From positions 1 to 8,147 of the IMG/VR virus record IMGVR_UViG_2529292834_000016: a DNA stretch of 8,147 bases; one strand, written 5' to 3'. A program made the position numbers and the translations under genes. The DNA is from a virus. Taxonomy: Duplodnaviria; Heunggongvirae; Uroviricota; Caudoviricetes. Below are positions 1-8,147 of the stretch, piece after piece; position 1 is the stretch's first letter, and each line of letters begins with the position of its first letter. Under the pieces are notes generated by a model. That model was not told the DNA's origin. It worked only from the letters and a program-made list of their open reading frames with translations, and made no database searches.

Positions 1-276
1 TCGCAAACGACGAAAACTACGCTTTAGCAGCTTAATAACCTGCTTAGAGCCCTCTCTCCCTAGCCTCCGCTCTTAGGACGGGGATCAAGAGAGGTCAAAC
101 CCAAAAGAGATCGCGTGGAAGCCCTGCCTGGGGTTGAAGCGTTAAAACTTAATCAGGCTAGTTTGTTAGTGGCGTGTCCGTCCGCAGCTGGCAAGCGAAT
201 GTAAAGACTGACTAAGCATGTAGTACCGAGGATGTAGGAATTTCGGACGCGGGTTCAACTCCCGCCAGCTCCACCA
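1..276 (+). ncRNA. ssrA: tmRNA (SsrA), 3' ~276 nt; the 5' ~87 nt lie upstream of the window
   Basis: Sequence matches enterobacterial tmRNA as I recall it, from the tag-encoding region through the tRNA-like 3' domain, ending GGTTCAACTCCCGCCAGCTCCACCA at 252-276. Far longer than a typical att-core duplication, so this is the intact gene copy. Confidence 0.95.
3..35 (+). other. ssrA: tmRNA tag-peptide reading frame, ANDENYALAA plus TAA
   Basis: GCA AAC GAC GAA AAC TAC GCT TTA GCA GCT TAA read directly at 3-35; this is the canonical SsrA degradation tag. Confidence 0.9.
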
Positions 277-286
277 ATTAAAACAA

Positions 287-319
287 GGGGTTACGTGAAA
301 GCGTAGCCCCTTTTTCTTT
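287..319 (+). terminator. Candidate intrinsic terminator downstream of ssrA
   Basis: 9-bp stem GGGGTTACG (287-295) / CGTAGCCCC (302-310) with one G-U pair, 6-nt loop, followed by TTTTTCTTT at 311-319. Confidence 0.55.
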
Positions 320-322
320 GGT

Positions 323-363
323 AGTGGCGGCAAAATGGCGACAGAGTGTCGGAGTGGCGGCAA
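323..363. repeat. 11-bp direct repeat AGTGGCGGCAA x2, 30 bp apart, function unknown
   Basis: Identical 11-mers at 323-333 and 353-363, between the two terminators at the prophage/host junction. The repeat itself is certain; a role as integrase or accessory-protein binding sites is a guess. Confidence 0.5.
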
Positions 364-389
364 CAAAAAACCCGCCATTAAAGCGGGTT
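361..389 (-). terminator. Intrinsic terminator of ogr
   Basis: Minus-strand RNA reads AACCCGC-UUUAAUG-GCGGGUU followed by UUUUGUUG: a 7-bp perfect stem and U-tract starting 4 nt after the ogr stop. Confidence 0.6.
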
Positions 390-393
390 CTGT

Positions 394-612
394 TCAGAAA
401 CTCATGTGGCCTTGACCACCTTTTCCAGGATGTGGCGGCGCAGAAGAAATTAGATTCGGTTTTATAATGTGCCGTACAAACGTTTCATGAGTAACGAACG
501 TACAGCCACAATTTATATTTTGGCACTGGTTGTAACGTTCTTTTGTCGTAGCTGATACCTGAAAGCTGCTTCTGGTATGTGCTGCATGACCGCACTCTGG
601 ACAGTTCATCAT
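394..612 (-). CDS. ogr: Ogr/Delta-family zinc-finger late transcription activator, 72 aa from the internal Met
   Basis: MMNCPECGHAAH...CQNINC carries the CX2CX22CX4C spacing of P2 Ogr and resembles it closely. SD-like GGTGGGA sits ~8 nt upstream of ATG 610-612. The six-frame ORF's start at 660 adds 16 unlikely residues. Position after gene D matches P2. Confidence 0.85.
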   Translation of the reverse strand: MMNCPECGHAAHTRSSFQVSATTKERYNQCQNINCGCTFVTHETFVRHIIKPNLISSAPPHPGKGGQGHMSF

Positions 613-648
613 CGCTGTTATCCCACCACTCTTGCCGTAGTCGCAATA

Positions 649-676
649 ATGATACAGCATTATTCAATATTGAGAA
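649..676 (-). promoter_or_regulatory. Candidate sigma70 promoter for ogr
   Basis: On the minus strand, TTCTCA (676-671), 16-nt spacer, TATCAT (654-649), about 35 nt upstream of the ogr ATG in an AT-rich D-ogr spacer. Hexamer match only. Confidence 0.3.
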
Positions 677-680
677 CCAA

Positions 681-1781
681 TTATTCAATTTCAAGATCAT
701 CAATCTTTACTTCAAGCTCCATGCTGGTCGTAAATCCATTATCCGGGCTGACAGAATGCGTCAGGGTGGTAATGGTCCATTCTGCATCATCAATCGGCTG
801 CTTAAACCCCGTCACCTTCACCGGCATTTCCGTATAGAGATCAGCCCGCCCCTCAGCCAGCTGCAGGGAAAATGAAGCAACCCCACGCTGCAGACGTTCC
901 CACTGCATTTTTGCTGCGCGCTCTGCATTGCTCCGATTGGCATAGGTACGATTAAGAACCAGCACGTTTTCATCCGTTCCCACCAGATAATCGCCCTGTT
1001 TTGCTTCCGGCTCTTTGGGTGTGGTGGTTTTCTTTCGACGGCGCTTAACACTGGTTGTCTCTTTTTTCCTGGGTTCACGCGTATGCAACCAGCTGGCAAT
1101 AACACCGGTATAGGCACCACGATCAGCAAGGGTGAACCGATGACCGTCACCGGCTTTGCGTGTGATGGTGATAACCGGCAGCGGCTTGCCGCTTGCCGTT
1201 CTTCCCTGTCCCTGCCGGATAAACAGCAGATTCCCGTCTTTAACGGAAGCAATCGCCCCATACTGTCTCGCCAGTTTCATCAGAAAACTTGCATCGCTTT
1301 CATTGGTCTGGTCCAGATGATCCAGTGCCTTATCCGTCAGGTCTTTACCCAGCGCCACTTTGAGGTTATGCCGGGCGGCGATTTCCTTTACCACCTCCCC
1401 CACCGTTGTCTGATGCCATGATTTTTCGCGCCGTGTATTCAGGGTCTCACGGAAATCTGCACTACGCGCCCGGATGGTCAGTCGGTCAGGGGCACCGCTG
1501 TGTTCAATTTCATCCACGGTAAAAGCCCCTTTAGGGAAAAGCGGATGGCCTTTCCAGCCCAGCGCAAGCTGAATCACTGCCCCACGTCGCGGCAGGGCGA
1601 TCAGCCCGTCGGCATCGTCCAGCTCCAGATCAAGCTGGTCCGCTTCAAAGCCCCGGTTATCCGTCAGCGTCAGACTCATCAGGCGGGTATCCAGCACGGT
1701 CGTCACGTCCTTACCTTCAATGACGATACTGAAAGCCGGGCTTTTGCTGTTCAGGTTCAGGAGATCAGAATTAACGTTCAC
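681..1781 (-). CDS. D: P2 gpD-like tail protein (late control gene D family), 366 aa
   Basis: Length and sequence are consistent with the P2 gpD family and the gene sits between U and ogr. Starts with GTG at 1779-1781, preceded by GGAGGA, and overlaps the U stop as GTGA. Confidence 0.88.
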   Translation of the reverse strand: MNVNSDLLNLNSKSPAFSIVIEGKDVTTVLDTRLMSLTLTDNRGFEADQLDLELDDADGLIALPRRGAVIQLALGWKGHPLFPKGAFTVDEIEHSGAPDRLTIRARSADFRETLNTRREKSWHQTTVGEVVKEIAARHNLKVALGKDLTDKALDHLDQTNESDASFLMKLARQYGAIASVKDGNLLFIRQGQGRTASGKPLPVITITRKAGDGHRFTLADRGAYTGVIASWLHTREPRKKETTSVKRRRKKTTTPKEPEAKQGDYLVGTDENVLVLNRTYANRSNAERAAKMQWERLQRGVASFSLQLAEGRADLYTEMPVKVTGFKQPIDDAEWTITTLTHSVSPDNGFTTSMELEVKIDDLEIE

Positions 1782-2263
1782 TGCAGCAATCCTCCAACCG
1801 TGTTTTTAATCCCCCCAATCGCAGAGGCAGCAGAGTCCTGCAGGTTGCTGAGCTGGTCACTCAGGCTCCCGAACATGTCAGACAGCGACTCATCAACCCG
1901 TTTGAGGGTGATCGTAAACTCAATGCGCCGGGGCATTCCACTGGCAAAAAACTCCGTCTTTGTCTGGCTCAGACTCTCAATAACAAACATGCCGTAAATG
2001 GTTCCGCTGCCTTCAATCAAAGGCCAGGCTTTGCCCTGCTCTGCCATCAACTCCAGCGCCAGCAATGACAGCCTGCCTCCGGTCACTTCCGGCAGCAGAA
2101 CCCCGGACAGTGTCAGTGAATCATTATCCGGGCCAAGAAACTGCGTTGACGGGCGGCGGTTCACCCGGCTGTTGGCTGCATGTCGCCAGCTGCGCTGATA
2201 CTGCAGCTCCTGATAAGGGACAGTGCGCAACATAAATACATATAAACCCAGCACCATCATCAT
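1778..2263 (-). CDS. U: P2 gpU-like tail protein, ~160 aa
   Basis: Size and position between T and D match P2 gpU. Start ATG overlaps the T stop (ATGA at 2260-2263), with a G-rich SD inside the 3' end of T. Confidence 0.8.
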   Translation of the reverse strand: MMMVLGLYVFMLRTVPYQELQYQRSWRHAANSRVNRRPSTQFLGPDNDSLTLSGVLLPEVTGGRLSLLALELMAEQGKAWPLIEGSGTIYGMFVIESLSQTKTEFFASGMPRRIEFTITLKRVDESLSDMFGSLSDQLSNLQDSAASAIGGIKNTVGGLLQ

Positions 2264-5200
2264 GATTCATACCCCCCCTGATCGCTGAAATTGCTGCGCG
2301 CTTTTGCCCTGGCCCTGCGTTCCCGCTCGTCAAGCTGGCGTGCCACTTCACGGGCAATATCCTGCGCACTCTGTCCCGGCTGCGCGACGATATGAATGGG
2401 CGCATTTATCTCATAACGAATAACTGACGGCGGGCTGTCAGCCTTCACTGGCTGCGTCTGGTATGCCCTCGCAGGCAGACTGAACGGATGAAGCGGAGCC
2501 ACTTCTGCAGGTGTCGCAGCTACCCCCATCACGCCAGCAACGACAGAGGCCAGCGCAGCAGTACGCCGCCTGCTGGTGACATTTGCCGGTCCGTTCACAA
2601 TTTCAGGGCCATTTTCTCCAACAATGCCAAACTGCCCGCGTGGAATGATCCCCCCCGTGTCGTACATCCCTGCGTAAGCCGGGAACCCGCCTGGCGGCAG
2701 CACCACTTTGCCGTCACTGTTCACTGTGGCGGATTGCTGCTGCGTGACCTGCGCAGGCAGTTTCGCCTTTGCCGCCTCCTTACTGACAATACCGAGCTTT
2801 TCCAGTAGCCATGACACACCGGATTTAAGAGACTCCAGCGGGTGCATCACCCTATTCAGACCTTCCGCAAGCGCCTCACCAAACCGGCGCCCCATTGCAG
2901 CTGCGCTGTTCAGTTCTTCGGAAGTGGATTTAACCGGCGTAAGTAAATCACTGAACCAGCCCCACAAGGCCTGCACCCTGTCACCAATCCACTGGAACAT
3001 GGGCCTGAGCGGCTCAAAGGCGGCGCTGATGGGCGCTGCAGCGGCTTTGAACCCTTCCACCACGCCCCCCAGAAATGCACTGATGGGCTGCCAGTATTTC
3101 CACACAACCAGCGCCACACCAGCCAGCGCAGCCACAACCAGCCCTATCGGACTGAGCAGCGCACCCAGCATACCGGAAAGACCAGACAGCGCGCCGCGAA
3201 GTAATGCCAGCGGACCAGAAACAAGAAAACACAATACGCCACCGACAGCTGTCAGCCCACCCCGCAACGCCGCCAGCGGGTTCATCACCATACCGATAAC
3301 ATTACGGATACCTGACATACCGACACGGAACACGGCAAGCGGAGCACCTGCCACCGTTTTCAGTGCATTACCCGCTATTCCAACTGAGCGACGCAGGGAA
3401 TTAAGCGGGGCACTCAGCAACCCGACACTACCACCGGATGACGCCATACCCCGACGCAACAGGGAAAGTGGCGCACCTGCCAGCCATGACAGGGCACCGC
3501 CAGTACGTGTTACCGCTGCAGCAACGGAAGGTAATGTTTTTACACCCAGCACAGACAGGCCAAACCGAATCACCGCAATCGGCCCCAGCACAGCAGCCAC
3601 TGCCACGGCAAGTGTACCCAGCCCGACAGTGACAGCCGCCGTAGCCGCCGCCACTTTCATCAGCGTGCCAGCCAGCACGGGGTTCTGCTCCACCCAGCGA
3701 CGCAGCGCCCCGGTCACGCCCTTAACCATGCCCATAATATCCATCAGCGGCTGACGCAACGTTTCCCCCAGACTGCTGAAAGCGTTCTGCGCGCCAGTCT
3801 TAACCAGCAACCACTGCGCAGACAATGAATCCTTGTTAATGTCGGATTCTTTCTGCATGGAGCCATTAGCACCACTGCCTGATGTGAGTTTCAGCTGACG
3901 CTGCAGCTCCGGCAGGTTGTTAGCCAGCTTTGCCGCATCATCGCCAAACTCTTTACCAAAAATCATTGTCATGGCTGACAGGCGTTTATCCTGCGGCAGA
4001 TTGTTGACCTTCTCCAGAACCCGCTGAATGGTGCCCATGGCATCGGTGGTCATCTGCTTTTCAATCTCCGCAGGATTGAGTTTCAGCAGGTTCATACCTT
4101 CAAAGAAGCGTTTACTTTGCATGGTGGCAATGGACAGTTCACGCACCATGGCATTAGAGGCACTGGCGGCAATTTCCGGGGCAGCCCCAAGAGAAAGGAA
4201 TGTTGAACCCAGCGCAGCAGCCTTTCGGAAGTCAAGGCGGTCAGCCACGCCCCCCATACGCTGCAGGACGTTGATAATGTCCCCACCCTTTGACATAGCG
4301 TTATCGTCCAGGTAGTTCAGCGCATCGCCCAGTTGTTCAATATTGCGCGTCGGAACTTTATAGAGCTGCGCGATTTTCCCCAATCCTTCCGCCAGCTCAT
4401 CGGCGGGCAGCTCAAAGGCCGTTGCAGCTTTTGCCGCCGTGGATGCAAAGGCCAGCAGGTCACGTTTCTGGTCCTCAAAGGGATCGTCCTGGTCAGTCAC
4501 GCCCATGCGCGCGCCGCCTTCAACCAGCGCGGCATAGTCTATAGCACCATTCTCCATCGGCAGTTGCTCACTGGCAGCCTTAATGGCATCCTGCATGTCA
4601 TAAAACTGTTTTGTACGGTTGCCGTTATCGTCACGAAGCCCGTTTACCTGCTTTGCCACGCCTTTCATGGCATCTTCCATACTGGCATAGCTCTTAACTG
4701 CAGCCATAACCGGCGCGCCCATTGCCAGCCCCGCTGCCGTGGTGGTGGCCCCGGCTCCTGCAATGCGATCCCTTACCTCAAGACTCCTGGAGTATGCCGC
4801 ACGGGCGGCGTGCATTTTTCGCTGTTGCTCCCCGACACGTCGTAACCTTGCTTCCTGTTCAGAAAGCTGCCTGTTATAACGCATTGTTTCACGGGTAATG
4901 CGGGCCGTCGCGCTGGCGCCATCACTGGCTGAAATACCGGCACGATAAAGCTCTGCACGCACAAGTGCAGTCTGCTGCTGCAGCTTTTTCTGCCGTTCTT
5001 CCAGACGCTGAACAGCCAGCTGTTGACGGCCCAAAGCAACAACCTGCCGTTGAGAAGGCGGCCCCATCGCACCCAGCTCATGACTGAGTAAATTTGCACG
5101 CTGGCGGGCATAGTTCAGCCGGTCGCCCAGTTTCTGATTTTCTGCCTGTAGCTTTCGGAAGCTGTCCAGACTGCTCCCGGCCTGATCAAGCTGCTTTATT

Positions 5201-5325
5201 GCATCGCGGGATTTTTTGACAGCAGCAGCCAGCTCTTTTGAGCTGGCCTGCGCGGATCGAAATGGGCGGGTGAGCTTGTCAACCGCGTTCAGAATCACCT
5301 GCAGACGCAGGCTATTGTCACTCAT
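2260..5325 (-). CDS. T: Tail tape measure protein (gpT-like), 1021 aa
   Basis: Long ORF with an N-terminal coiled-coil-like Q/R/A-rich region, a central Gly/Ala-rich hydrophobic core and a C-terminal GG..IP.G.FGIVGENGPEIV motif typical of tape measures; sits immediately after the E/E' chaperone pair. Confidence 0.9.
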   Translation of the reverse strand: MSDNSLRLQVILNAVDKLTRPFRSAQASSKELAAAVKKSRDAIKQLDQAGSSLDSFRKLQAENQKLGDRLNYARQRANLLSHELGAMGPPSQRQVVALGRQQLAVQRLEERQKKLQQQTALVRAELYRAGISASDGASATARITRETMRYNRQLSEQEARLRRVGEQQRKMHAARAAYSRSLEVRDRIAGAGATTTAAGLAMGAPVMAAVKSYASMEDAMKGVAKQVNGLRDDNGNRTKQFYDMQDAIKAASEQLPMENGAIDYAALVEGGARMGVTDQDDPFEDQKRDLLAFASTAAKAATAFELPADELAEGLGKIAQLYKVPTRNIEQLGDALNYLDDNAMSKGGDIINVLQRMGGVADRLDFRKAAALGSTFLSLGAAPEIAASASNAMVRELSIATMQSKRFFEGMNLLKLNPAEIEKQMTTDAMGTIQRVLEKVNNLPQDKRLSAMTMIFGKEFGDDAAKLANNLPELQRQLKLTSGSGANGSMQKESDINKDSLSAQWLLVKTGAQNAFSSLGETLRQPLMDIMGMVKGVTGALRRWVEQNPVLAGTLMKVAAATAAVTVGLGTLAVAVAAVLGPIAVIRFGLSVLGVKTLPSVAAAVTRTGGALSWLAGAPLSLLRRGMASSGGSVGLLSAPLNSLRRSVGIAGNALKTVAGAPLAVFRVGMSGIRNVIGMVMNPLAALRGGLTAVGGVLCFLVSGPLALLRGALSGLSGMLGALLSPIGLVVAALAGVALVVWKYWQPISAFLGGVVEGFKAAAAPISAAFEPLRPMFQWIGDRVQALWGWFSDLLTPVKSTSEELNSAAAMGRRFGEALAEGLNRVMHPLESLKSGVSWLLEKLGIVSKEAAKAKLPAQVTQQQSATVNSDGKVVLPPGGFPAYAGMYDTGGIIPRGQFGIVGENGPEIVNGPANVTSRRRTAALASVVAGVMGVAATPAEVAPLHPFSLPARAYQTQPVKADSPPSVIRYEINAPIHIVAQPGQSAQDIAREVARQLDERERRARAKARSNFSDQGGYES

Positions 5326-5754
5326 CGCTGGCCCCGCTTCTCTGAATCGCTTTGTGCCGCCACTCCAGCACCTCAGTCAGCGGCATAACGTCAGTGATGG
5401 ACGGCGACCAGTGAAAAATGGTGGCGATATCCGCCACCAGGTCATCAATCGTCAGGCTGTCGGTAAACCGGCAAGCACCGACTTCTTCAACAAAAAAGTC
5501 ACCACCTCGACCGACAGCGCGGTGAGATCGGCGGGGTCCAGTTCAGCCATTTCCTGTGCGGTCAGCGTCGGGGTGGAAATACGCGGGATCACTGTCATCA
5601 TGGCCCCCACGTCCATATCCATAATGGCCTGCAGGCGGGTGCCGCGCAGCGCGCCGGACTGCGGCTTACGCAGCACAATTTCGGTGATTTGGGTTTTACC
5701 GCGCATGATGGGCGTATCCAGTTGTACGGTTTTTTCAGTCAGCTTGTCGTTCAT
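5318..5754 (-). CDS. E': gpE+E' fusion made by programmed -1 frameshift, ~145 aa
   Basis: After a -1 shift at T TTT TTG the frame stays open for 57 codons (VEEVGACRFTDSLTIDDLVADIATIFHWSPSITDVMPLTEVLEWRHKAIQRSGASDE) and stops at TGA 5318-5320, overlapping codons 2-3 of T. Confidence 0.65.
5452..5754 (-). CDS. E: Tail assembly chaperone gpE (zero-frame product), 100 aa
   Basis: Small ORF directly upstream of the tape measure gene; AGGAAA lies upstream of the ATG at 5752-5754; contains a slippery heptamer near its 3' end. Confidence 0.8.
   Translation of the reverse strand: MNDKLTEKTVQLDTPIMRGKTQITEIVLRKPQSGALRGTRLQAIMDMDVGAMMTVIPRISTPTLTAQEMAELDPADLTALSVEVVTFLLKKSVLAGLPTA
5491..5497 (-). other. 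Slippery heptamer T_TTT_TTG (X_XXY_YYZ), programmed -1 frameshift site
   Basis: Minus-strand codons ACT TTT TTG, i.e. Thr86-Phe87-Leu88 of E, place TTTTTTG in the canonical frame. Confidence 0.7.
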
Positions 5755-5779
5755 GTTCGTTTCCTGTTAATCAGATACT

Positions 5780-5797
5780 GGCGCGGATCACCGCGCC
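5780..5797 (-). other. GC-rich stem-loop in the FII-E intergenic region
   Basis: Perfect 7-bp stem GGCGCGG / CCGCGCC with 4-nt loop, 11 nt after the FII stop, not followed by a U-tract. Confidence 0.4.
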
Positions 5798-5808
5798 GTT
5801 AAGTTAAA

Positions 5809-6324
5809 TCAGAGGCCAAGGGCGTTACGGTGCGCTTCCATCAGGTCCACACCGTCAACGATTTCAATCATGTTGACCACATCAACCTCATAGAGCACCT
5901 CGCCGTTAATGGTCAGCTTCGCGTAACTGTTGGTGCTGCTGACTTTGGTGGCGCTACTTTCTCCAGTTTTCCACTCGCCGGAATCCACCTCTTTATGACG
6001 CCCCCGCACAACCAGCTCAACGGCCTGCACTTCGCCGGTATCGTCACGCTGAATAGAGCCGGTAAAACGCAACTGGATACCGTCCACCGTGGCAGCTCCC
6101 ATCTGTTTGAATAACAGCAGTTCGGTGCCGCCGATTGAAAATTCCGTGTCCAGTGCGCCGTCATCCAGCCCCATATCCACATCCACCGCGCCCGGCATAC
6201 CGCCGCCGCGATACTTCTCAAACTTGCGGGTGAATTTCGGCAGGGTCAGGGACTCAACGATCCCCTGCCAGTTGTTCCCGTCGTTGAACAGGTTCAGATG
6301 TTTTAACTTGCGTGGTAATGCCAT
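5809..6324 (-). CDS. FII: Major tail tube protein (gpFII-like), 171 aa
   Basis: N-terminus MALPRKLKHLNLF... and length match P2 FII; AAGGGGGA precedes the ATG; lies 9 nt downstream of the sheath gene. Confidence 0.9.
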   Translation of the reverse strand: MALPRKLKHLNLFNDGNNWQGIVESLTLPKFTRKFEKYRGGGMPGAVDVDMGLDDGALDTEFSIGGTELLLFKQMGAATVDGIQLRFTGSIQRDDTGEVQAVELVVRGRHKEVDSGEWKTGESSATKVSSTNSYAKLTINGEVLYEVDVVNMIEIVDGVDLMEAHRNALGL

Positions 6325-6333
6325 GTATCCCCC

Positions 6334-7506
6334 TTATGCACTGACACGGCTGGCAAAATCGACCAGGTAGCGATCGGTGATGCGCTGGCGCAGCATCAGA
6401 TTTTCAAGCGGCGGCACAGGTGTGTAGTCGTAGTCGATGGTGAGTTTCCCGGCTTTCAGGGAGTCTTTATCGTTCACTGACTCATCCAGCCAGCAGTCTG
6501 CCCCGATGAGGTATCCCTGATTCACCAGGCTGCGTAATTTGGCGCGGATACCTTCGATAATGTCGCGGGCCAGTGACGGATTCAGTGGCTTATCCACCGC
6601 CCACATATGCCCCTCTGCAATCGTGTCAGCCAGCACCTGCGCCGTGCGGGTGTAGTTCTCAAACGCAAACAATGGATCGTCACTGAGGCAGCGGGAACCC
6701 CAGAAGCGGAACCCGTCTTTACAGATCAGCGTGGTGACGTCGTTCTGGTTCAGCAGTCCCGCATCCGTTGCCGGGTCCTGCAGATCCCAGAACACATCAG
6801 CGGAAATACCGGTGACGCCATTCACACCCACGTTGGACAGGGTTTTATGCCAACCGGTCTGTTCGTCGATTTTGGCGCGCAAACCGAGCGCACGTGCAGA
6901 GGCGTAAGCCGTCGCATCGGCTTTTAGCACGGTGTCAAAGTTGATGAAATCAGGCCAGATCAGCATCCCTTCTCGCTGGCTGAAATTGTCCCGGTAAGCA
7001 ATGGCTTCCTCCAGCGTCTTGCAGCCATAGGCAGACAGGTAGGCAAACCCGCGCAGGCTCTGCGCAATACTCATCAGCTCAGTGGCTACCGCCTGCGTGT
7101 CGTGCCCCGGCACACCGAGAATGCGCGGATTAACTTTCAGCTGCGACTGCGCAGAAAGCAGCGCTTTCATCCCCGTTTTTTTACCGTCGGACGTGACGCC
7201 ACCGATAATATTGGAGGTGGTTTCCGCTTCGGTTTCGCCCTGCGCCACGCGCACAACAACCGTTACGGGCTTTGACTGGTCGGCAATCGCATCAAGCGAA
7301 CGGGCCAGCGTGCCGGACTCGCCTGCTTTACCGCTGGCCTCCAGCACATCCGTCAGCAGAACCGGCTTATTGAGAGGGAATACGGACGCATCAGCATCAT
7401 CGCCGGTGCAGACCATGCCCACGATAGCGGTGCTCACCGTGGTGATAGATCGGGTGCCCTCGTTGACTTCAACAACGCGCACCCCGTGGTGGTAATCCTG
7501 AGCCAT
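6334..7506 (-). CDS. FI: Contractile tail sheath protein (gpFI-like), 390 aa
   Basis: Strong similarity along its length to P2 FI as I recall it ([47 protein letters not shown]); AGGAGG lies 8 nt upstream of the ATG at 7504-7506. Confidence 0.93.
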
Positions 7507-7582
7507 AGCGGCGAACCTCCTGATTGGAATAGGCTTCGCCCTATGTTGTATTGATTACGTCACGCAGACAGCTGTGCGGCGT

Positions 7583-7600
7583 TGTCCTGTTAATCACACA
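7583..7600 (-). promoter_or_regulatory. Candidate Ogr-dependent late promoter element (TGT-N12-ACA dyad) for the FI operon
   Basis: TGTGTGATTAACAGGACA on the minus strand, centred ~85 bp upstream of the FI ATG, consistent with a -55 activator site plus a ~30-nt leader. No good -35 is present, as expected for activator-dependent P2 late promoters. Confidence 0.5.
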
Positions 7601-8147
7601 ATGTCGCAGGATATTTGCGGTATAACGTTGAGACACCCACATCAAAAATTAAAGCTACCCGCTGCCGTGTTTCACCTGCAGCAATTAACCTGCCTGCCTG
7701 CGCCCATTGTTCTGGCGTCAGTTTTGGTCTTCGCCCTCCGATCCTGCCTTTAGCTCTTGCGGCTTCCAGCCCCGCACGGGTTCGTTCCACTATCAGCTCG
7801 CGTTCCATCTCCGCCAGTGCCCCCATAACGTGAAAGAAAAACCGCCCCATCGGAGTACTGGTGTCTATGCTGTCAGTCAGACTGCGGAAATTAACCCCGC
7901 GCTGTCGGAGTTCTTCTATCAGGGTCACAAGGTGTCGCATGCTTCGCCCCAGCCTGTCGAGTTTCCATACAACCAGCGTGTCTCCCTCTGATAACGTCCT
8001 GAGCAACCTTTTTAGCCCTGGCCTGTCTGCTGTTTTTCCGCTCATTTTGTCCTCAAAAATTAGCTCACATCCTGAACGTTCCAGTGCATCACGCTGCAGC
8101 GCTGTGTTTTGCTCACTTGTTGATACGCGCACATAACCGACTAACAT
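7590..8147 (-). CDS. Serine-recombinase DNA invertase (Hin/Gin/Pin/Cin family), 185 aa, complete
   Basis: MLVGYVRVSTSEQ N-terminus with catalytic Ser, conserved GDTLVVWKLDRLGRS and SLTDSIDTSTPMGRFFFHVMGALAEMERELIVERT, and a C-terminal HTH (VGVSTLYRKY). The start codon is the last 3 nt of the window. Confidence 0.92.
   Translation of the reverse strand: MLVGYVRVSTSEQNTALQRDALERSGCELIFEDKMSGKTADRPGLKRLLRTLSEGDTLVVWKLDRLGRSMRHLVTLIEELRQRGVNFRSLTDSIDTSTPMGRFFFHVMGALAEMERELIVERTRAGLEAARAKGRIGGRRPKLTPEQWAQAGRLIAAGETRQRVALIFDVGVSTLYRKYPATLCD

Follow-up and report, generated by a model that had tools for sequence, protein, structure and literature searches.

A covarying leader hairpin whose 5' strand holds a predicted late promoter may insulate the tail sheath gene of a Fels-2-like phage from read-through

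The window analyzed here is the whole stretch of 8,147 nucleotides (nt) at positions 1 to 8,147 of the IMG/VR virus record IMGVR_UViG_2529292834_000016 (Caudoviricetes), which on sequence grounds belongs to the Fels-2-like phages of the P2 family (Peduoviridae). The minus strand is the coding strand for every gene of the window, as seen in the open reading frame (ORF) list and the Pfam assignments. The junction at 7504-7606 on this strand, between a gene for a Din-family serine DNA invertase and FI, the gene for the tail sheath protein, probably combines the PF late promoter and leader of FI, a tolerated compaction of the invertase gene, and an RNA hairpin that would insulate FI from read-through transcription. 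A more tentative proposal covers the Fels-2-like phages in general, in which PF may be placed within the 5' strand of a covarying hairpin, such that only RNA initiated with the zinc-finger activator Ogr makes sheath and RNA entering from the upstream hotspot stays silent. The features of the junction are as follows.

7578 to 7606, minus strand: predicted full activator footprint, transferred by analogy from the 29-base pair (bp) annotation of P2 PF and covering invertase codons 181-185 and the stop
7583 to 7600, minus strand: TGT-N12-ACA dyad TGTGTGATTAACAGGACA, the predicted Ogr site of PF, a perfect dyad conserved in position
7543 to 7548, minus strand: -10 element CAACAT (family consensus xAxCAT), with the hexamer ending 57 nt from the TGT start
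7535 to 7545, minus strand: hairpin 5' arm CAUAGGGCGAA, running from C7545 to A7535 and comprising the last three -10 bases and the discriminator
7534 to 7536 (7535 +/- 1), minus strand: predicted PF transcription start, placed by P2 geometry, with a leader of about 28-30 nt
7516 to 7521, minus strand: FI Shine-Dalgarno (SD) sequence AGGAGG, located in the loop of the hairpin, with partial pairing to UCC/CC in long RNA
7504 to 7515, minus strand: hairpin 3' arm UUCGCC-G-CUAUG, running from U7515 to G7504 with G7509 bulged and comprising the SD-AUG spacer and the FI start codon

The hairpin, which the initial annotation of this DNA missed, is an 11-bp helix within 42 nt of RNA, and its 19-nt loop holds the SD sequence. 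The 42-nt hairpin alone folds at -18.0 kcal/mol, and in read-through RNA of the window the probability that the FI AUG is paired is 1.0. The mean pairing probability of the AUG is 0.81 in long RNA compared with 0.39 in RNA of PF length, and it is higher in the long RNA for 47 of the 51 unique leaders. As the 5' arm lies upstream of the predicted start, and as transcription from a promoter cannot begin ahead of the promoter's own -10 element, the complete hairpin would form only in RNA begun upstream of PF. In the proposed mechanism Ogr (encoded at 612-394) would bind the dyad at 7600-7583, centered at about -56, and recruit RNA polymerase to a promoter that has the CAACAT -10 element and no -35 element; transcription would start near 7535, and FI would be translated from the AGGAGG (7521-7516) and the AUG (7506). 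Transcripts of the invertase and of the PV operon (or a moron) would cross PF, and on this read-through RNA the hairpin would silence FI translation, whereas the PF mRNA, begun at the 3' edge of the 5' arm, would be open.

Counterparts of the hairpin are located at about 3470-3504 in Fels-2 (L007) and at 17623-17658 in P2 (L001). The arms of six families of relatives are given below.

Fels-2 family: 5' arm CAUAAGGUA, 3' arm UGCCUUAUG
L013 family: 5' arm CAUAAGGCA, 3' arm UGCCUUAUG
L053 family: 5' arm CCAUGGGUGAA, 3' arm UUCAUUCAUGG
L084 family: 5' arm CAUGUAGCGG, 3' arm CCGCUACAUG
L261 family: 5' arm AUAGCGGA, 3' arm UCCGCUAU
L216 family: 5' arm AGUCAC, 3' arm GUGACU

When the 5' arm was shuffled apart from its CAT, the native pairing proved stronger than that of the shuffles (p <= 0.05) for 37 of 41 arm combinations of the Fels-2-like group, and arms set against their own partners give -11.7 kcal/mol compared with -6.8 kcal/mol for arms from other families (permutation p about 1e-4). 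Covariation was calculated on an alignment of 12 sequences that was registered by hand, padded with N, and left ungapped by MAFFT. In this alignment 97.5% of the cells are paired compared with 27-50% for slid partners, two-sided changes occur at five of the 11 pairs (C-G to U-A, A-U to G-C, and G-C to A-U via G.U), and the observed covariation score is reached by none of 500 shuffles. The G.U pairs are abundant in the helix, which favors an RNA on the FI sense strand; a DNA cruciform or an antisense RNA was rejected since each G.U pair would become an A.C mismatch in the complementary strand. A helix of lesser strength, CACUCAcCC/GGaUGAGUG (p about 0.01), is found in P2 and some of its relatives, with the annotated start of P2 falling within the 5' arm. 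RNAalifold predicted no structure on a MAFFT alignment of 23 leaders, in which indels put the arms out of register. Queries with more distant FI proteins (L084, L088) returned mostly the same loci, with FI more than 90% conserved. A scan of a genome collection with TTGTGTGAWTAACNNNACAAC was set aside, as 11 of the 12 matches probably arose by chance, in taxa without an evident connection to P2-like phages of enterobacteria, and only Escherichia sp. MOD1-EC7003 appeared relevant.

The promoter itself is defined by its position relative to FI and by the spacing between its conserved blocks. The comparison set was formed by 80 viral contigs encoding close relatives of FI together with reference phages, and 86 loci were scanned with the exact pattern. 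TGT-N12-ACA is found 87-94 nt upstream of the FI ATG in all 86 loci, with the inner 12 bases varying widely. An ungapped arrangement of 48 non-redundant promoters anchored on the dyad has its main information-rich blocks at TTGT, at ACA, at a weak A-N2-TG-C near +30, and at xAxCAT ending 57 nt from the TGT start. The 57-nt spacing from dyad to hexamer is fixed in nearly all of the 48 promoters, with one exception (L259) that appears mis-anchored. This conserved position and rigid spacing identify the dyad as a genuine promoter element. A two-hexamer sigma-70 scan found nothing on this strand, where the -10 element is present and a -35 hexamer is not. At about 7567-7573 (+27 to +33 from the dyad start) there is a semi-conserved A-N2-TG-C block, which reads ACGTGC in most relatives and AGCTGT in the window; its place is at about -38 to -33 relative to the predicted start, where it may serve late promoters instead of a -35 hexamer.

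The start position was taken from P2, for which the GenBank record places the PF activator site at 17555-17583 (TGT at 17561), the start at 17626-17628, and the FI ATG at 17652. The P2 half-sites (TGT...CCA) and GAAAAT occur at the same distances as in the window, CAACAT aligns with GAAAAT, and the annotated P2 start lies 7-9 nt downstream of this hexamer. The annotated P2 PF and PV starts are 65-67 nt from the TGT start, which in the window puts the dyad center roughly 56 nt upstream of the predicted start. The PV dyad of the Escherichia coli E7476 prophage (L002, 3905-3972; P2 counterpart L001, 10239-10308), the nearest complete relative of the window, is exactly 65 nt before the V ATG and provides an independent check of the PF geometry within the same lineage. 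P2 has its V-operon start annotated at the V start codon itself. A leaderless V mRNA is thus predicted from sequence, in which case V translation too would require initiation at the late promoter; a leaderless V at PV may follow the same logic as the FI hairpin, with translation tied to the promoter's own start. The initial annotation had taken the dyad as the activator site of the FI late promoter, with transcription starting about 55 nt downstream of the dyad center. The first proposal is borne out by the 86-locus position, the -10 spacing, and the P2 PF annotation, and the second agrees by analogy with the P2 geometry. At the level of sequence, the promoter has every hallmark of the Ogr-dependent late-promoter class and is one more well supported instance of PF, an ordinary tail-sheath late promoter. 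It should be useful in annotating P2-like prophages, the spacing of dyad to -10 being rigid across very divergent sequences.

An upstream start would change the meaning of the hairpin. If TAATCA (7557-7552) were the true -10 element and transcription began at about 7545, the hairpin would lie within the PF mRNA as a 5'-terminal stem-loop that stabilizes the mRNA or tunes FI translation. A plausible hexamer occurs in several families about 13 nt before CAT (TAATCA, TATCAA, AATGAT, and TATAAA), the 5' arm starts almost exactly 7 nt after it, and 5'-terminal hairpins are known to stabilize mRNA. However, the upstream hexamer is not conserved, reading TGGCAA in Fels-2 and being absent in L018, and has low information content, whereas the position of xAxCAT is invariant, including the A at position 2, which lies outside the helix. 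The alignment of xAxCAT with P2 GAAAAT, with the annotated P2 start downstream, also favors the hexamer at 7548-7543. The upstream start would place the dyad center at about -47 instead of the -55/-57 of the family, and PV in the same lineage fits +65. Finally, a helix of -18 kcal/mol over the AUG of the most abundant tail protein would be an odd design, and the upstream start is considered unlikely.

As the initial annotation stated, no intrinsic terminator is present between the invertase and FI: a terminator scan of 7300-8147 on both strands found no terminator-like site, a 141-nt RNA across the junction folds no better than its shuffles (z = -1.17), and an Rfam search of the junction returned no match. 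The hairpin at 7545-7504 is followed by GGCUCAGG with no U run and so does not have the form of an intrinsic terminator. Fels-2, E7476, and MLG42 have no convincing terminators between the tail-fiber genes and PF, and the relatives show only short matches of 5-8 bp, mostly at or below chance numbers and none between the invertase and the dyad. Transcripts from upstream should cross PF because of this lack of a terminator. The earlier suggestion of read-through into FI is consistent with these results, but expression of sheath from such RNA leaves out of account the conserved hairpin that would sequester the FI start codon. One palindrome had been singled out in the same interval.

7568 to 7575, minus strand: 8-bp palindrome ACAGCTGT in the -35 region, overlapping the A-N2-TG-C block

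Relatives read GCAGCTGT, TTAGCTGT, ACAGATGT, and AGAGGTGT at this site, and ACAGCTGT was rejected as a functional palindrome or terminator, being not conserved, too short, and without a T run.

The 3' end of the upstream gene extends into the promoter.

7590 to 8147, minus strand: gene for the Din-family serine DNA invertase, 185 amino acids, with Pfam matches to Resolvase (PF00239, 7.5e-53) and HTH_7 (PF02796, 1.1e-13)

The invertase has the N-terminal sequence MLVGYVRVSTSEQ and, as in the Din family, a Resolvase domain with an N-terminal serine and a C-terminal helix-turn-helix (HTH); its gene is about 76% identical in nucleotide sequence to P1 cin. Its last codons are CCT GCG ACA TTG TGT GAT TAA, with the TAA at 7592-7590 on the minus strand, exactly as in the initial annotation, which had the dyad spanning the stop and the last codons. 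Eleven of the 18 dyad bases are inside the invertase ORF including the stop, and an 83-nt spacer separates the stop from the FI ATG at 7506. The last four codons (TLCD) and the TAA are thus supplied by promoter DNA, and the HTH_7 match stops at residue 181, leaving these four residues outside the domain. In the window (7590-7612) and its relatives the invertase C-terminal tails are hypervariable past a conserved ...FPA, reading TLCD, AALYG, NKSNESP, VNQSR, SQPG, TPVTPA, GPVKVA, or SR, and this hypervariability marks the invertase 3' end as a recombination seam with the PF module. An alignment with Cartapus, KP12, 500465-1, and Kp4845-2 shows the window to be without 68 columns between the invertase HTH and the dyad, and BLAST homology with the same four starts within 1 nt of the dyad. 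The junction of the window lineage is shorter by about 23 nt than that of Fels-2 and by 59 nt than that of Cartapus. In the scenario suggested by this arrangement, an invertase of the Gin/Cin/Hin type in the tail-fiber/TO hotspot directly upstream of PF would have lost its own C-terminal tail and stop, and now reads TLCD into the promoter and stops at the TAA in the dyad spacer. The P2 hotspot often encodes a DNA invertase (preprint, bioRxiv 10.1101/2024.10.15.618418, section 9).

The gap between the last base of the stop codon and the T that opens the dyad was determined for 43 unique junctions, representing all fetched loci with an invertase upstream of FI.

+136 nt: 1 unique junction
+48 nt: 4 unique junctions, the Cartapus type
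+18 nt: 1 unique junction
+16 nt: 6 unique junctions
+12 nt: 8 unique junctions, Fels-2 among them
+8 nt: 2 unique junctions
-11 nt: 7 unique junctions, comprising the window type (TLCD, then the stop) and L205/L217 (AALYG, then the stop), with the TAA at the same dyad position
-32 nt: 13 unique junctions, P2-type E. coli prophages with an ORF through the whole dyad (ending ...KNKLCHPLANRDK, then the stop)
-60 nt: 1 unique junction, a frameshifted pseudogene

In the -32 type (L102, L116, L117, L120, and others) the invertase stops 14 nt past the dyad and 59 nt upstream of FI, a stronger overlap than that of the window. Among 5,426 complete E. coli genomes, 11 carry the junction of the window type; it persists across about 12% divergence of the invertase protein, which indicates that it is tolerated. 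The overlap described initially is therefore real but not peculiar to this phage, since the invertase stops range from +48 to -32 and Fels-2 has a 12-nt gap and no terminator. By its sequence, the overlap is a common, tolerated compaction and not a regulatory device, given that the HTH ends before the overlap, that the junction persists, and that the gaps of other lineages run from +48 to -32. Hotspot cargo in P2-like phages is thus routinely spliced up to or into the activator site with no terminator, and the junction survey raises the question of how lysogens avoid leaky expression of tail genes.

Several results weigh against an insulating role for the hairpin. The SD sequence is predicted to be partly paired in the short PF mRNA also. 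A large L105 subgroup of P2-type phages has no arm pairing, two arm combinations (L069 and L077) are unpaired, and in a few families the helix covers the spacer and not the AUG. The MLG42 type, commonest among the relatives, has a weak helix of -7 to -9 kcal/mol, of which roughly half comes from the unavoidable complementarity of CAT and ATG. The covariation alignment was built by hand to fit the helix, and its 12 sequences represent about five lineages only. No clean association was found between hairpin strength and the presence of an invertase or co-oriented upstream ORF (-11.7 compared with -8.9 kcal/mol, with phylogeny uncontrolled and crude ORF calls). The functional claims for this phage are all transferred by analogy from P2. 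Invertases of this family show weak expression, and the amount of read-through may be trivial.

These points are closest to a reading in which the junction has no consequence, the overlap and the missing terminator being inert, the arm pairing a by-product of CAT/ATG complementarity plus chance or ancestry, and read-through negligible or harmless. The free variation of the stop-to-dyad gaps from +48 to -32, the lack of a clear link between hairpin energy and upstream content, the weak helix of the commonest family, and its absence from some P2-type phages would all fit. They do not account for the compensatory double changes at five of 11 pairs and the fall to 27-50% paired in the slid controls, for a shuffle test that remains significant in 37 of 41 arm combinations with the CAT fixed, or for the finding that at least eight unrelated arm sequences all pair, and an inert junction is accordingly judged improbable.

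An overlap selected for regulation is far less plausible, whether bound Ogr were to block or terminate late transcription of the invertase or polymerase from the invertase were to occlude PF. Geometry alone speaks for it, in that the predicted footprint at 7606-7578 covers the last five invertase codons, but gaps of 12-48 nt coexist with ORFs through the whole dyad, so no particular overlap is selected; activators of the Ogr type are not known as roadblocks, and polymerase has already completed the invertase ORF when it moves off the site. That TGT-N12-ACA is a chance match and no promoter element can be effectively dismissed, for although the count of the bare motif in the window (three compared with 1.9 expected, a number reached by 65 of 200 shuffles) is at chance level and so uninformative by itself, the positional conservation in 86 of 86 loci, the rigid -10 spacing, and the match to the annotated P2 PF site are decisive.

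The reading in which the hairpin insulates FI from read-through offers a directly testable answer to leaky tail-gene expression, and the covarying hairpin is a more novel element than the promoter. A literature search found, among the papers covered, no description of the invertase-PF overlap, of the FI leader hairpin, or of such an insulator in P2-like phages.

The remainder of the window agrees with the assignment to the P2 family.

6334 to 7506, minus strand: FI tail sheath gene, heading the FI-FII-E/E'-T-U-D operon, with Pfam matches to Phage_sheath_1, Phage_sheath_1C, and Gp18_domIII_N
394 to 612, minus strand: ogr, encoding a zinc-finger late activator of 72 amino acids (Pfam Ogr_Delta, PF04606, 4.8e-22) presumed to act on the dyad

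The FI counterpart is annotated as sheath in L002, Fels-2, and Cartapus, and FI is followed by FII (tube), E, T (tape measure), U, and D, with Pfam assignments for all six genes of the operon. The Ogr translation shows a CX2CX22CX4C motif, and its counterpart in L002 is annotated as a 219-nt coding sequence. The nearest complete-genome match is the prophage of E. coli E7476 (L002), with 97.6% identity over the region, and the gene order is shared with E. coli E7476, Fels-2, and Cartapus. The window ends at the invertase ATG and the crossover sites lie beyond it; in L002 the opposed tail-fiber and assembly genes are present, and a cix/hix-like sequence TTAAACCAACGTTTAAG occurs about 55 nt upstream of the invertase ATG, although a repeat finder did not return the pair of crossover sites. 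Elsewhere in L002, at 1761-3861 in the S-V hotspot and outside the window, a DUF4435 protein and an AAA ATPase on the opposite strand form a defense-like pair.

At the low-coordinate end of the window, positions 1 to about 277 appear to be the 3' part of ssrA, the transfer-messenger RNA (tmRNA) gene, interrupted where the window ends. ARAGORN made no call for this partial ssrA, which was seen via the annotation of L002, in which ssrA and then smpB directly follow ogr. The position of this 3' part suggests that the prophage sits at ssrA, as the L002 prophage does and as is reported for Fels-2/SopE-phi. A GC hairpin and T run at about 365-390 follow the ogr stop, as at the P2 ogr/F-operon terminator. 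Between E and T, inside the E' frameshift extension, TTTTT comes directly after a 9-bp GC-rich stem, TGGTGGCGG-ATA-TCGCCACCA (5419-5439, minus strand); the structure resembles a terminator yet is within the operon, and could have a role as an attenuator or in the E/E' frameshift.

Comparison with known late promoters shows the window PF to be closely similar to P2 PF, of the Ogr/Delta-dependent class to which the late promoters of 186 and P4 also belong, in having a dyad about 91-94 nt before the FI ATG. As in P2, the -10 element (xAxxAT) is at an equal distance from the dyad with no -35 element, the FI-FII-E-T-U-D-ogr operon follows, and the cognate zinc-finger activator is encoded downstream. 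Between the conserved blocks the sequence is unrelated to P2, and the right half-site is CCA in P2 and ACA in the window. In a further difference, the P2 gene upstream, fun(Z), is read from the opposite strand and P2 has an annotated V-operon terminator, whereas in the window the co-oriented invertase overlaps the dyad and there is no terminator. Fels-2 (Felsduovirus) has the same order of tail-fiber inversion module, invertase, PF, and FI, also with no terminator, a dyad at -90, and the hairpin CAUAAGGUA/UGCCUUAUG over the AUG. Its invertase stop is 12 nt before the dyad, whereas that of the window is 11 nt inside it, and the promoter and hairpin sequences of the two belong to different families. 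The invertase resembles Gin (Mu), Cin (P1), Hin, and Pin in combining a Resolvase domain with a C-terminal HTH and in its place beside alternative tail-fiber C termini and assembly genes, and differs from them in taking its C-terminal four residues and stop from a neighboring promoter.

The closest precedents for the hairpin are found outside the P2 family. In T4 the genes e (lysozyme), soc, 49, and I-TevI have a late promoter in the 5' strand of an inhibitory hairpin, so that early read-through RNA is not translated and the late RNA, being without this strand, is (PMC3014915, section 29). The FI leader resembles the gene e type in that the helix would hide the initiation region in RNA begun upstream, and the late RNA is predicted to be without the 5' arm. 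The T4 promoters are gp55 late promoters crossed by early and middle read-through, whereas here, by analogy, sigma-70 and Ogr would be used and the read-through would come from the invertase, a moron, or the PV operon. A comparable mechanism, fold-back inhibition of transposase transcripts that begin outside IS10/Tn10, was reportedly described by Davis, Simons, and Kleckner in 1985. In IS10 the stem of incoming transcripts hides the start codon and the element's own promoter starts inside the stem, in a transposon and not in a phage operon. If the insulating role of the FI hairpin is correct, the principle of a promoter within a hairpin, known from T4 and IS10, would also hold for temperate P2-like phages and the tailocin-like operons derived from them.

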